A stretch of DNA of 64,000 bases from an uncultured Methanosarcinales archaeon (GTDB lineage Archaea; Nanobdellota; Nanobdellia; Woesearchaeales; CAZPJY01), in the NCBI GenBank assembly GCA_964587045.1, contig CAZPJY010000002.1:1-64000 (forward strand). Reading direction: 5' to 3'. How positions within the stretch are numbered: the first letter of the stretch is position 1; every line of letters starts with the position of its first letter. The notes under the pieces are model-generated. The model was not told the DNA's origin. It did not search any database and worked only from the letters and a program-made list of their open reading frames with translations. Position numbers and translations under genes: made by a program. This document shows positions 57,652 to 61,130 of this stretch, piece by piece.

Positions 57652-58887
57652 ATGAATGTCATTTGCGTCAAGTGCAAGGGCCGAGACCCTTCCAACTGCG
57701 GTCGCACCTTCTGTCCGATAACAGCGAAGGTAAACTCGATGTACAAGGCAAGGGACAGGCTTTCCACAGACCATTTCTTCGGCGAGAGTCCGTCCCCTTT
57801 CGTCGGCCGGTTCGGCTACCCTTATGTCAATGTCGGTGTGCTTACGCCTCCGGATCCTGAGGACGAGGCTTGGCTGTACGACGCACCCAGGGAATGGGCT
57901 TTGAGGGGCTTCGACATCCTCAAGGTCATGGATCTGCGCACGGCGCTAATCAACTCCAGGGCCCTCGCCGACGTCAGGATGGCGAAGAGGTCTGTTGAGG
58001 TAAGCCAGCTGGTTGGGATGTCTTCAAAGCCTGTCGATGTGGAGGTCGAGCTCACCAAGAAGCCGCATCTGGCTGTCTCGTACTCAGACGCCTCCGCCCC
58101 GACGGGGGCTACTGCCCAGCTAAAGAGGATTCAGATGATCTCTAACCCCAAGGTCTCACCCAAGGTTGAGCGGGTCGTTGATGACACTGACCTCAAGGCG
58201 GCAAGCGCTGTTACATCCCTTTACGAGAAGGGATTCGACGAGAACTTCCTCTCGCGGATGCTGTCCGTTGGCACTGTCGGCGTCAAGGTGCAGCGCAGGT
58301 TCGTGCCTACCAGGTGGAGCATAACCGCGACCGATGACATGATTGGACGCCATCTCATTACGAAAGTCCGAGATCTTCCTGAAGGGGATACGCACTTCGT
58401 GAGGTTTGGGGGATATTTGGGCAACTACTACCTCCTGCTCTATTTCCCTGACGTCTGGAGCTATGAGCTGTTCGAGACCTACCTGCCCAGGGCCTCTTGG
58501 AACCCCACGGGCGAGATCCAGTTCGTGACAGACCGCGAGGGATACAATGGCAGGAAGGACTACGCAGCGGACACAGCCGGGGGATACTACGCCGCCCGTC
58601 TCGCTATCCTCGAGGACCTGGTCAAGGCCAAGAAGCAGCACACTATCATCGCCCTTCGGTTCATCACCGGAGAGTATGCCGTCCCCCTCGGGGTTTGGGT
58701 AGTGCGCGAGGCCACCAGGAAAGCAGTGGCAGCTGCTCCCGCAACCTTTTCTTCACGCGAGCTGATGATCCAATACGTTATGGATTTTGCCAAGAAGAAA
58801 TTCGGCGCTGACATCAGCGGGATGGTGGAATCCTCCATCCTCTTGAGGAATATCCGGACGCAAAAGAAGCTACGCTCCTATTTCTGA
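57652..58887 (+). CDS. nreA: Nre-family DNA repair protein
   Basis: C..CKG...CG...CP, FVGRFGYP.V.VG, VPTRWSITATD, GGYYAARL, PLGVW.VRE; PIP QKKLRSYF. Confidence 0.92.
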   Translation: MNVICVKCKGRDPSNCGRTFCPITAKVNSMYKARDRLSTDHFFGESPSPFVGRFGYPYVNVGVLTPPDPEDEAWLYDAPREWALRGFDILKVMDLRTALINSRALADVRMAKRSVEVSQLVGMSSKPVDVEVELTKKPHLAVSYSDASAPTGATAQLKRIQMISNPKVSPKVERVVDDTDLKAASAVTSLYEKGFDENFLSRMLSVGTVGVKVQRRFVPTRWSITATDDMIGRHLITKVRDLPEGDTHFVRFGGYLGNYYLLLYFPDVWSYELFETYLPRASWNPTGEIQFVTDREGYNGRKDYAADTAGGYYAARLAILEDLVKAKKQHTIIALRFITGEYAVPLGVWVVREATRKAVAAAPATFSSRELMIQYVMDFAKKKFGADISGMVESSILLRNIRTQKKLRSYF

Positions 58888-58894
58888 TGTATGA

Positions 58895-59175
58895 GGGTGG
58901 ATACCGAGGTATCCACCCGTTTTGGGATCACTCCCGAGGCAAACCCTTGAAGTCTTGTGAAAGAAAAAGCGGCTCCCTGGGCGGGTATCGAGGGGGGTGG
59001 TTGATAGAAAACTCAGGGAGCCGACTTTTGTGTGATCGTACTCTTATCCTCAGGATAAGAATAAAGGCTCCTGGCCTGGGTAAAAGGGGGGTGGTTCGGT
59101 TAGAATCGGCCGAGGAGCCCTTGAGCGTGCAAGCTTCCATCTTACAGAGGGAAGCCACCATGATATCCGCTATTT
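58895..59175. ncRNA. Candidate novel structured ncRNA with two C-rich (or G-rich) loop hairpins
   Basis: Six hairpins between convergent genes; repeated AGGGGGGTGGTT loops; minus-strand TATA near 59201-59208. Confidence 0.6.
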
Positions 59176-59291
59176 CCAATATAACATAGGATACACTAGT
59201 ATATAAATGTTACGAAATTGTATACTAATTTAGTGTTTACCCCATTCTTATTTATAAATGGGATATCACACAACCGAATAAAGATACAAGC

Positions 59292-61130
59292 CTATCTGAA
59301 GAAATCCTCAGCCTTGATTGCGAAATCAGGCGTGACCTCGAGGTCCAGTCCACCAGGAAAATATGCCCTGTAATTTGGGTAGGCGTAACGCTCGTCGAGG
59401 AAGACCACCAGCCCCCTGTCGTGTGCAGACCTGATGCACCTCCCGGCCGCCTGCAGAGCCTTGTTGAATGCAGGCAGGATGTAGGCGAACTCCCAGCCCT
59501 TTGAGAACTTACGGTCGTAGTAAGCGATGAGCTCCTTGGTCTCCAGATCCGGCTGCTGGAAGGGAAGTCCGACGATAACCACACAAGACAGCAGGTCTCC
59601 AGGCAGGTCGACCCCTTCTGAGAACGAGCCTGAGACGCATCCCAGGAGCACTGCGCCCGGGTTCGAGAGCATCCTAAACTTCTGCAGGGTCTCGGTCCTC
59701 TCCCGCTTGGTCATGCTGGGTGCCTCGTAGAGCACCTCCCTGGAGGTGAGCTTCTCGAAGTACTGCGCCACATGGTCGCGGAGGGCGTAGCTGGGAAAGT
59801 AGATAGCAGTGTTGCCCTTCACCCTGTCAGCGATGGCTGAGGTTATGGTTGCTATCTTCTCATACTCCCTTGGAGACCTGTTCGAGAACTTGGTCGAGGC
59901 CAGCGGCACAATCAGGTTCCTCCTGTTCTCTTTAGGGAAAGGGCTACCGAAGGTCTTTTCGACTGCGCGTCCCACACCCAGTAGCTCGCGGTACATGGAG
60001 GTGGGTGAGAGGGTGCCTGACATTACGATGGTCGAGTGGCTCTGGTTTATCACCGGGGCCGCTATCAGCGACGGGTCCAGGCACCTGTATGACAGTGTGA
60101 GGATGGGATACCTGCCTGAGTCCTTGGTCGAGAGTATCCTTGCGAAACCCTCATCAGGCCCCTGCCATGCGTCCAGGAACGTGGCGACGCTTGCGATATA
60201 GCTCTTCTTCTCCTGCTCACGTACAGTGTCCCCCAACAACGCCAGCTCTGAAGTGAGGAGGTCATAATCCTGTATGGGCTCGACGAAGGCATCCTTTGAA
60301 ACGAGGATCTCATCCTCACCTTCCTTTGCTAAGCCCATGATGGTATCCTGCACCTTGATCAGTTTGGTTGCAACCTCGTTGTACCCCATCTTCTTGGCTT
60401 CTGTAATGGCGCGCTGGAGCATCATGGTGGAGAGCCGTTCGCTTGCCAGGTCCTTGATCCTGGACGGCAGGTTGTGGCCCTCATCAACGATGATTATGGC
60501 CTTCTCCAGCTCCTTTGATGCCTTCTGGAAGAACGACTCCCTGATCTTGGGGTTGAAGATGTAGAAGTAGTCTGTCACGATGACTGAGGACTCAGATGCC
60601 AGCTTCATCGATATCTCGTACGGGCAGAGCCTTTCCTCAGCGCATCTCCTGATGGTCCCTTCAGTATGGGTCGGGCCAGCCTTCTTGAGCTCTCCGAGCA
60701 TCCTCTTGGCCTCGACAGAGAGTCCGCCCTTGGTGCGCGTGCGCTCGTAGAACTCGCACCTGTTATCCTCCCTGACAGCGCGGCAGTAGTCGGCGAACTC
60801 AGAAGAATGGAGATCCTCGACGCCGGGAACAGGGCACATCCACTTCTTGCCTATGATGTTGGTGACATTGAACTTCTCCTTGTGCTTCTCCCTTATCGCC
60901 GCCAGCGTATCGACCGCTATCGCGTGCTGGGTGTGCCTGGATGTGAGGAAGAAGACAGTCAGCCCGTGCTCGAGGGCGTAATCGAGCGCCGGGGCGATGG
61001 TGGCCGCGGTCTTCCCCAGGCCTGTCGGGGCGTGGGCGATGAGGTTACTTCCCTCATTCAGGACCTGCCTTACGCTCTCCATGAACTCCTTTTGGACAGG
61101 GCGGATGCTGTCATGCGGGAAAAGCCTCAT
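59292..61130 (-). CDS. xpd: XPD/Rad3 Fe-S DNA helicase
   Basis: R..Q, HAPTGLGKT, 4 Fe-S Cys (CPY), VDEGHN, MSGTL, FPSY, SEGVD, QAAGRCIR. Confidence 0.93.
   Translation of the reverse strand: MRLFPHDSIRPVQKEFMESVRQVLNEGSNLIAHAPTGLGKTAATIAPALDYALEHGLTVFFLTSRHTQHAIAVDTLAAIREKHKEKFNVTNIIGKKWMCPVPGVEDLHSSEFADYCRAVREDNRCEFYERTRTKGGLSVEAKRMLGELKKAGPTHTEGTIRRCAEERLCPYEISMKLASESSVIVTDYFYIFNPKIRESFFQKASKELEKAIIIVDEGHNLPSRIKDLASERLSTMMLQRAITEAKKMGYNEVATKLIKVQDTIMGLAKEGEDEILVSKDAFVEPIQDYDLLTSELALLGDTVREQEKKSYIASVATFLDAWQGPDEGFARILSTKDSGRYPILTLSYRCLDPSLIAAPVINQSHSTIVMSGTLSPTSMYRELLGVGRAVEKTFGSPFPKENRRNLIVPLASTKFSNRSPREYEKIATITSAIADRVKGNTAIYFPSYALRDHVAQYFEKLTSREVLYEAPSMTKRERTETLQKFRMLSNPGAVLLGCVSGSFSEGVDLPGDLLSCVVIVGLPFQQPDLETKELIAYYDRKFSKGWEFAYILPAFNKALQAAGRCIRSAHDRGLVVFLDERYAYPNYRAYFPGGLDLEVTPDFAIKAEDFFR

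Follow-up and report, generated by a model that had tools for sequence, protein, structure and literature searches.

A conserved C-rich-loop hairpin and a candidate small RNA gene between nreA and xpd of a probable DPANN archaeon

The window analysed here is a 64,000-nt stretch of contig C2 of an archaeal genome assembly (G000; 1.6 Mb, 50 contigs), and the source names given to homologues of its proteins suggest that the organism belongs to the DPANN archaea. In the 405-nt gap between two convergent DNA-repair genes of this window, nreA and xpd, we found two copies of a C-rich-loop hairpin that is conserved in the order; the features of the locus suggest that the minus strand encodes a small non-coding RNA under its own promoter. 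A first-pass annotation had described at this place a structured RNA of about 280 nt comprising six stems, the two large ones being paralogous and displaying the same loop, similar to an anti-Shine-Dalgarno (anti-SD) sequence. The observation is real, as is confirmed chiefly by conservation, and its interpretation is partly supported. All six stems are found by reading of the sequence, and both large ones match one and the same covariance model. The proposed length was not upheld: the conserved unit is the single hairpin, and the likely transcript would be about 215 nt long (from ~59176 to ~58962) and contain four of the six stems, those at 58895-58935 lying past the U-tract.

The family was defined with a covariance model (R1) built from an alignment of nine hairpins (A1) and applied with a cut-off of E ≤ 0.01. 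It matches 58 of the 151 genomes of the order, and 45 of the 115 that are at least 90% complete; most have one match and five have two (G000, G003, G029, G038 and G065). A search at the level of the phylum gave 25 genomes with a match, G000 included, all belonging to the same order, as did every genome listed. One row in several of the counts given here and below comes from an unpublished genome (G131, locus L046); no claim depends on it alone. In a BLAST search of 40 genomes of the order, matches were limited to about the last 30 nt of the query, and several of the loci retrieved in this way possess, downstream and on the opposite strand, a hairpin that has the stem and loop of the two large ones of G000.

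The consensus of the family is a stem GGCUCCC/GGGAGCC closing a G-poor loop that contains UUCU and AACCACCCCC. In an alignment of 38 sense-strand rows (A4; fitted to the model, hence favouring the structure), 96.4% of the cells of the nine-pair stem are paired, and double-sided changes are present in seven of the nine pairs (e.g. AACUCCC/GGGAGUU, AGCUCCC/GGGAGCU and GGUCCCC/GGGGACC). None of 500 shuffles reached any of the five pairing measures, and controls in which the partner was slid by 1–3 columns gave a pairing of 35–63%. The hairpin is found across the order, and its stem covaries. The loops are 20–50 nt long, with 40% C and 6% G, and carry UUCU in all 38 rows, CCCCC in 30 and ACCACCCC in 26, figures that are partly obtained by construction since the rows were found with a model having those features. 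UUCU and the C-run are separated by a variable distance (0–10 nt).

Concerning the strand, the evidence from wobble pairs had initially been judged mixed. Among the first nine pairs of 34 hairpins we counted six G-U/U-G pairs and a single A-C pair, which identifies the strand with the C-rich loop (minus in the window) as the RNA strand. Further support is provided by an 18-nt promoter motif that (with up to 3 mismatches) precedes the hairpin or its partner gene (see below), in the minus-strand sense, in 29 of the 30 loci fetched. Folding of the region was better than that of all 100 shuffled sequences on either strand (z-scores of −3.3 for the plus strand and −6.2 for the minus strand). The elements of the locus, in order of position, are the following.

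57652-58887, plus strand: nreA (Pfam Nre_N and Nre_C)
58895..58935, no strand assigned: two short stems, GGGUGGAUAC/GUAUCCACCC and GGGA/UCCC, adjoining the nreA stop codon; the latter has the loop GUGA on the minus strand (58924-58935)
58960..58969, minus strand: U-tract CUUUUUCUUU, the first strong one on this strand, directly after hairpin B, a likely archaeal terminator
58970..59023, minus strand: C-loop hairpin B, CGGCUCCCUG .. UUUUCUAUCAACCACCCCCCUCGAUACCC .. CAGGGAGCCG; R1 score of 58.8 bits
59042..59060, minus strand: small spacer hairpin UCUUAUCC-UGA-GGAUAAGA, from sequence reading and folding
59066..59119, minus strand: C-loop hairpin A, GGCUCCU(C)GGCC .. UUCUAACCGAACCACCCCCCUUUUACCC .. 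GGCCAGGAGCC; R1 score of 50.4 bits
59120..59129, minus strand: flank CACGCUCAAG, directly 5' of hairpin A (counterpart in G003: CACGCUCAAA)
59133..59155, minus strand: 5' hairpin GCUUCC/GGAAGC, specific to G000, without a homologue seen in relatives
59174..59177, minus strand: predicted transcription start
59195..59228, no strand assigned: palindrome ACTAGTATA..N..TATACTAAT, similar to an operator and sharing bases with the TATA box, a putative protein site
59213->59196, minus strand: promoter motif GTAACATTTATATACTAG, composed of a BRE-like GTAACA and the TATA box TTTATATA (59207->59200)
59292-61130, minus strand: xpd, an XPD-type helicase gene (DEAD_2, HBB and Helicase_C_2)

Hairpin B is the top match of the whole order search (E = 2.4e-9); hairpin A (E = 1.5e-7 for the genome) has one bulged base in its stem and a U-A seventh pair, which is C-G in most rows. 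Their loops, of 31–34 nt, both carry GGGTA..AGGGGGGTGGTT..TAGAA and share the core GGGGGGTGGTT, an 11-mer present at these two places only in the window and in just two copies in the whole 1.6-Mb assembly. The flank of hairpin A recurs before the first hairpin of G003. As to the two short stems at 58895-58935, they are situated beyond the U-tract on the minus strand and, on the plus strand, the stem 58895-58918 begins 8 nt past the nreA stop codon and is followed by GTTTTGGG; for these reasons they probably form the 3' end of nreA and lie outside the conserved RNA. No homologue of them was seen in relatives. The 59100-59299 interval is rich in AT (GC content of 0.375).

Two metagenome contigs, which are short, derive from four DNA runs with a depth below 3 and do not necessarily represent one organism, cover parts of the locus. 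The first, near-identical, has 2 substitutions and 2 indels in the hairpin region (58927-59091), the substitutions in the spacer hairpin being confined to its 3-nt loop. In the second, the promoter (59177-59240) is unchanged and the xpd-side spacer (59241-59297) shows 17 substitutions and 8 indels.

Read against the archaeal TATA consensus, the promoter motif on the minus strand consists of a purine-rich element resembling a B recognition element (BRE) followed by a TATA box; the TATA box had already been noticed at first pass and is indeed there, its position having been given one base off. By BLAST, the 18-mer was found in 14 of 41 genomes, G000 included. The loci matched in relatives have ACTAGTATATAAATGTTACG in common, with a partial inverted repeat after it, and the same palindrome layout, CCAGTATAC-N-GTAACATTTATATACTAGT, is seen in relatives. 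At the G000 locus, the AGTATA/TATACT inverted repeat is the top match in the assembly. The promoter motif sits within a palindrome, CCAGTATAC..TATACTAG, the right half of which overlaps the TATA box; this arrangement suggests that the palindrome is an operator to which a protein would bind. The ATG of the partner gene is located 18–21 nt past the last base of the motif (mostly 22–26 nt from TATA to ATG), so that the gene is leaderless in relatives, and the same spacing applied to G000 places the predicted transcription start at 59177-59174. In one locus (L014 of G008), the motif was also seen about 80 nt upstream of an ftsZ-like gene, which hints that ftsZ and the winged-helix gene described below may be under a common regulator.

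A conserved gene of 120–146 codons immediately precedes the hairpin in 24 of 30 loci. Its product (~130 amino acids) begins with MVILFDRFN and contains an invariant YNKRQFYDR; the G000 copy of the gene is on another contig (C10:22789-23181). The protein has 3865 homologues at E ≤ 0.001, and among the 120 of them listed the source-given name is always 'hypothetical protein', from Woesearchaeota, Nanoarchaeota or DPANN archaea. A search against Pfam gave KfrB alone (E = 0.2) and one against NCBIfam nothing; the best sequence match in PDB had an E-value of 0.45, and a protein atlas search returned only proteins of its own kind. An AlphaFold model (mean predicted local distance difference test score, pLDDT, of 83.5) was compared with known folds: the best Foldseek probability (0.97) was to Bacillus subtilis PadR, with an E-value of 0.08, and VIA-align retrieved winged-helix domains at Z ~8, a level described as common for this tool; weak Foldseek rows pointed to ribosomal protein eS19. 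The modelled fold is that of a winged helix, and the protein may reasonably be supposed to be a dimeric repressor of this fold that would act on the palindrome.

The hairpin is not behind the gene in seven relatives (G003, G004, G026, G029, G038, G074 and G098). In G004 the xpd stop codon is followed by the operator/promoter and, after about 87 nt, by the hairpin with a long U-run, a second promoter and the gene, the succession of xpd, promoter and hairpin being common to G004 and G000. In G026 the motif precedes both the gene and an unlinked hairpin; G003, G038 and G074 have the promoter and the hairpin with no gene in between; G098 has a hairpin devoid of the motif and the gene elsewhere; and in G029 hairpin and gene are divergent, with a GGUGGGG leader. 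With G000, at least seven genomes have the hairpin unlinked from the gene; six of these seven have it behind its own copy of the promoter, and a G-rich SD leader precedes the gene in such genomes. A promoter followed by the hairpin without an intervening gene exists in six families or more, represented by G000, G003, G004, G026, G038 and G074, and three of these genomes (G000, G003 and G038) have two hairpins at such loci. The well-supported branches of the gene tree require that the unlinked state arose at least twice. A run of five G (G5) is located 6–9 nt before the start codon in six of 37 gene loci (G000, G004, G026, G038, G074 and G098), none of which has a 3' hairpin; conversely, a 3' hairpin was detected by regular expression in 22 of the 37, none with a G5 leader, so that no locus has both. 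The nine others have neither by the strict pattern, several of them possessing variant stems found with the model (e.g. L015/L050, L053 and L063). These genomes are kin, and the association between leader and hairpin is not a statistical test.

The reading that we favour, tentatively and with somewhat less than an even chance of being right, is that the locus encodes a regulatory RNA whose C-rich loops pair with ribosome-binding sites of the GGGGGU type. In nine of ten full-length 16S genes of relatives the 3' tail of the 16S rRNA is GGAUCACCUCCU, the tenth gene running off its contig (that of G000 is truncated where contig C34 ends). With U changed to C, this tail becomes the loop core AACCACCCCC; the perfect complement of the core, GGGGGUGGUU, was read as pairing with the tail along ten positions, three of them wobbles. 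The loop sequence AACCACCCCCC is the exact Watson–Crick complement of GGGGGGUGGUU, a version of the SD sequence with G for A and U for C. Given this 16S tail, SDs of the GGGGGU type need wobble pairs with the ribosome and none with the loop. The genomes do use such SDs. Upstream of candidate starts of G000, GGGGGTG shows a 3.5-fold enrichment (2.0-fold for GGAGGTG), and 48 of its 199 copies are 2–12 nt before an open reading frame (ORF) of at least 60 amino acids, the partner gene on C10 being among them. The number of GGGGGT-N3-10-ATG occurrences exceeded that of a reversed control in five genomes out of five (105/47, 59/26, 27/4, 24/15 and 8/5), as did that of GGAGGT-N3-10-ATG (187/92, 73/44, 44/33, 57/25 and 24/10). 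The full GGGGGTGGTT directly before an ATG occurs in relatives, in numbers that are meaningless because the loci were fetched by loop pattern. Finally, the two loops both carry AACCACCCCCC, and the RNA thus has the two or more unpaired C-rich loop motifs that are a trait of the class of small RNAs (sRNAs) targeting SDs with C-rich boxes.

If this reading is correct, the conserved promoter, with its TATA box overlapped by the operator, would drive synthesis of an RNA of about 215 nt ending at the U-tract, in which two G-poor loops would present UUCU and AACCACCCCCC in single-stranded form. This RNA would bind GGGGGU-type sites more tightly than the ribosome does and lower translation of that class of mRNAs. 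One target may be the mRNA of the unlinked winged-helix gene on contig C10, the product of which probably binds the operator. tRNAs were rejected as targets: none of 32 holds GGGGG[TG]GG, and the duplex scores are meaningless. A conserved stretch of the 23S rRNA, GGCUGGGGUGGCAC, which we assign to the P-loop region, contains GGGGUGG in four out of four relatives (G017, G084, G016 and G024; L256-L259). This 7-mer is complementary to CCACCCC of the loop core, but one such match in 3 kb is near chance.

Several findings weigh against a pairing with SDs. GGAGG-type SDs, which would meet an A-C mismatch with the loop, are at least as common as the GGGGGU type. In the 24 loci out of 30 where the hairpin stands behind the gene, that gene is leaderless and SD-less, and the hairpin cannot act there on its own mRNA. 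SDs of the G5 type occur frequently in the order (at 13 of the 269 ORF starts of a locus set biased by fetching), which makes the presence of G5 before the unlinked genes less special than it appears, and the gene tree is poorly resolved, 20 of its 34 inner branches being open. In G004 and G026, the loops were read as pairing poorly with the leaders of their own genes beyond the G-run. In the 0.6-Mb genome G017, the sole GGGGGTGGTT is the antisense of the hairpin itself. In the duplex scan of the start regions of G000, internal GTG codons rich in G prevailed, and no list of targets could be drawn from it. With up to one mismatch allowed, the 10-mer target is absent from the 16S, SRP and RNase P loci, and the 23S loci have 7-mers only, at chance level. 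Lastly, no RNA sequencing run is listed among those that contain the stretch, and expression of the RNA is a prediction.

The other points that speak against pairing lead to the alternative that we consider nearly as likely, although still doubtful: the element would be a protein-binding RNA, the stem and the UUCU..AACCACCCCC loop being recognised by the winged-helix protein or by another factor. In this reading, the hairpin would exert control in cis from the 3' untranslated region (3' UTR) of the partner gene or of ftsZ, and the twin hairpins of G000 would act as a decoy or sponge, or as the RNA half of a ribonucleoprotein. The stem is near-invariant, GGCUCCC being found in 33–37 of 37 rows at each pair; this exceeds what seed pairing needs and fits recognition by a protein. 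Moreover, the same loop is found on other stems. A GCCUUCAU/AUGAAGGC-type stem with this loop is located 20–90 nt behind ftsZ in five genomes (G009, G011, G016, G024 and G000), in a variant form, GGUUUUGCCUUC/GAAGGCAAAAUC, in G011, and this second stem is as constant as the first class. The G000 copy, at C2:65798-65848 on the plus strand, is about 1.8 kb past the end of the window and 87 nt after ftsZ (C2:64635-65711); it is made up of the stem UUGCCUUCAUU/AAUGAAGGCGA and the loop ..AAAUCACCCCCGACG.., after which come a GC hairpin and a U-run. Two further C-loop hairpins of G000, again with other stems, are on the minus strand of contig C4 (~63270-63150), between ORFs of 45 codons and 99 amino acids. 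Their loops, cAUUCUAACCUCCCCACCCCCUCACUCCAU and ..UUCUACCCCCCCCAACCGA, are C-rich and free of G, the flanks of the first (GAGGUGA and UCACCUCC) extend its stem, and a promoter resembling that of the nreA-xpd locus lies upstream. A loop that is kept on unlike stems, 3'-terminally in certain mRNAs, suits an element recognised by a protein about as well as it suits a pairing seed.

A role in protein binding would also account for the joint retention of hairpin and gene in any of three layouts, with the gene first (24 of 30 loci), with the hairpin first (G004) or with the two unlinked under the same promoter (G026), and for the hairpin being kept behind leaderless genes that offer no SD target; two identical tandem loops would suit a sponge. 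The partner itself is predicted to be a winged helix, some winged-helix domains bind RNA, and the eS19 rows, if weak, go in that direction. However, the folds closest to it are DNA-binding regulators, for which the palindromic operator already supplies a DNA target, and no RNA-binding family was matched in Pfam or NCBIfam. In addition, a loop of 20–50 nt with a spacing of 0–10 nt between UUCU and the C-run seems loose for a single protein site.

A mixed feedback circuit peculiar to this order, which we consider rather unlikely in its entirety, would combine pairing and protein. The protein would shut the operator-promoter shared by its own gene and by the hairpin RNA, and the RNA would act as a 'super anti-SD', complementary to GGGGGUGGUU-type sites by Watson–Crick pairs alone. 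It would outcompete the 16S tail and selectively silence the mRNAs with G5 sites, among them, where gene and hairpin are unlinked, that of the protein itself; the loop in the ftsZ 3' UTR would tie in cell division.

A further explanation, unlikely in our opinion, is that the hairpins are mere 3'-end elements characteristic of the order, either terminators or blocks to 3' exonucleases, and that the G000 locus is the relic of a gene that has moved. It agrees with the position of most copies directly after a stop codon (at 0–20 nt in 22 loci), with the run of at least four U within 15 nt downstream of 19 of 33 homologous hairpins (counted by hand) and with CUUUUUCUUU after hairpin B. However, archaeal termination requires only a U-tract, and a conserved loop of 20–50 nt would have no role in it. 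Although U5 follows hairpin B, a scan for terminators (GC-rich stem, loop of 3–8 nt and U-run) gave none in 58700-59400. A relic would be expected to decay, whereas promoter and hairpin persist without the gene in the six or more genomes listed above, and the metagenome contigs (of low depth) keep the hairpin region and the promoter while the xpd-side spacer diverges. Directly 3' of the hairpin, seven of 33 loci (L038, L040, L042, L045, L046, L048 and L063) have a second conserved element, YCCUCGC-RRGGGAAAAAGAG-GUGAGGA. It forms a small hairpin whose loop is rich in purines, and it carries a perfect SD-like GAGGUGA; a start codon at SD distance is absent.

It is very improbable that the element works at the level of DNA, the inverted repeats serving as protein sites or as parts of an origin with the G-run as the G-string of an origin box. 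The stem is a palindrome conserved in sequence, the plus strand has a G-string and there is an AT-rich stretch adjacent to it. Nevertheless, the six-to-one wobble asymmetry favours one RNA strand, the element follows genes in the sense direction in 24 of 30 loci, and the copies are direct, not inverted, about the AT-rich part; the order of G-string and dyad is also unlike that in archaeal origin recognition boxes. No orc1/cdc6 gene was noticed alongside, no search aimed at one having been made.

Least probable of all is that the region encodes a small protein, from a plus-strand ORF (58887-59189, 100 amino acids, overlapping the nreA stop codon by one base, TGATG, in the manner of coupled genes) or a minus-strand ORF (58928-59179, 83 amino acids): both frames are open throughout, but palindromic GC-rich DNA tends to be open on both strands, neither ORF belongs to a Pfam family, tblastn against all fetched loci gave at best E = 0.27 with short matches on the hairpins themselves, and the homologous units of G004 and G003 have at least two stops in each of the six frames, with longest open stretches of 45 and 81 codons, respectively, that do not span the unit. 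The first-pass annotation had named a conserved reading frame as a finding that would speak against an RNA, and the tblastn and six-frame analyses reveal none.

The locus was also compared with known RNA families. The claim that it is unannotated holds for Rfam 15: at gathering thresholds the whole window has five tRNAs only, all elsewhere, and at E ≤ 10 the 58700-59400 region has only snR52, at 18.9 bits for a cut-off of 45, which we regard as junk. Likewise, the first-pass exclusion of signal recognition particle (SRP) RNA and RNase P RNA is borne out, neither model giving a match in the region. A divergent SRP RNA was rejected on the additional grounds that no helix-8-type motif is seen and that the hairpin coexists with normal SRP RNA in relatives such as G017 and G010. 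Archaea_SRP (RF01857) finds SRP RNA in 20 of 20 relatives, 18 of them above cut-off; its one match in the G000 assembly is on C18, at 10.9 bits. The RNase P RNA of G000 was identified with RF00373 at C16:15997-16300 (156 bits), and the weak extra matches exclude the region. No 23S rRNA was found in G000, where genes for structured RNAs are apparently under-assembled; a gap in the assembly probably explains why SRP RNA is missing.

Many dispersed copies, as of a miniature inverted-repeat transposable element (MITE) or a repetitive extragenic palindromic (REP) sequence, had been named at first pass as a finding that would refute the RNA. The element is not such a repeat, and the region is single-copy: its 328 nt, compared by BLAST with the assembly, matched themselves and short chance sequences, the GGCTCC..GGAGCC stem with a C-rich loop is present only at this locus in G000, and relatives mostly have one copy. 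H/ACA RNAs are characterized by an ACA box and a kink-turn (K-turn) or K-loop, and C/D RNAs by boxes RUGAUGA and CUGA. Guide RNAs of these kinds were rejected, as the stems are followed by UUUAUU or GCUUUU and not by ACA, the G-poor loops preclude GA pairs and no snoRNA family reached its threshold. A sponge of the CsrB type was also discarded, neither G000 loop having a GGA. A search of genome contigs with the loop pattern gave a single match, apparently by chance, in a bacterial metagenome-assembled genome (MAG), and a scan of viral contigs gave none. In metagenome contigs, the 16-nt flank CACGCTCAARGGCTCC proved to be an unspecific pattern, with at least 120 matches and the hairpin in none of the 80 loci for which DNA was obtained.

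The mechanisms that we consider most likely belong to kinds already known. Like bacterial sRNAs derived from 3' UTRs, which arise by two known routes, the element mostly consists of a hairpin and a U-tail at the 3' end of an mRNA and in some genomes has its own promoter; it differs from them in being archaeal and in having a large conserved loop in place of a seed 5' of the terminator. The loops of CsrB and RsmZ carry GGA and bind CsrA. The present RNA shares with those sponges the repeated hairpins with the same short loop motif, but it has only two copies, its loops are poor in G (6%) and its partner protein is only a candidate. RsaE (or RoxS) and RNAIII have unpaired UCCC motifs that bind SD sequences (PMC2790875), and the likeness resides in the two or more unpaired C-rich motifs complementary to G-rich SDs, shown in the loops or linkers of a short and stable RNA, for which a block of the initiation complex has been proposed (same paper). 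In contrast to RsaE/RoxS, the element comes from DPANN archaea, has no Rfam match, displays the 10–12-nt AACCACCCCC(C) instead of UCCC and is usually an element of the 3' UTR of one gene, free-standing in some genomes; its action on SDs is a prediction. In Archaea, sRNA41 of Methanosarcina mazei, also an intergenic RNA, has been proposed to mask ribosome-binding sites (review PMC5867862). Its phylum and sequence are unrelated to those studied here and its targets are sites within the polycistronic mRNAs of acetyl-CoA decarbonylase/synthase (ACDS; PMC5867862); in the passages of that review devoted to it, neither a link to a winged-helix gene nor a conserved operator is described. A full-text literature search (supplements not covered) found no published description of such an element in DPANN or Woesearchaeota, and the RNA family, the operator and the partner gene appear to be undescribed.

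DPANN archaea have tiny genomes and are mostly uncultured, and their post-transcriptional regulation is almost unexplored. The analysis provides an RNA element of about 55 nt shared by over 50 families of one order, together with a promoter/operator and a partner gene with no assigned function, both likewise conserved; all three can be tested jointly in vitro. If the loop competes with the 16S tail for GGGGGU sites, the choice between wobble and canonical SDs would amount to a regulatory code, and the principle of C-rich-loop sRNAs would extend from Firmicutes to Archaea. Should the feedback circuit prove true, it would give DPANN archaea their first described conserved riboregulator, and wobble-type and canonical SDs would define two gene sets that can be controlled separately. 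Even a protein-binding element would merit an entry in an RNA family database, with better annotation of such genomes as a benefit. As a side observation, the segment 68001-76000 of contig C2 in G000 has a GC content of 0.39–0.40 as against ~0.53 for the contig and is possibly a foreign island.

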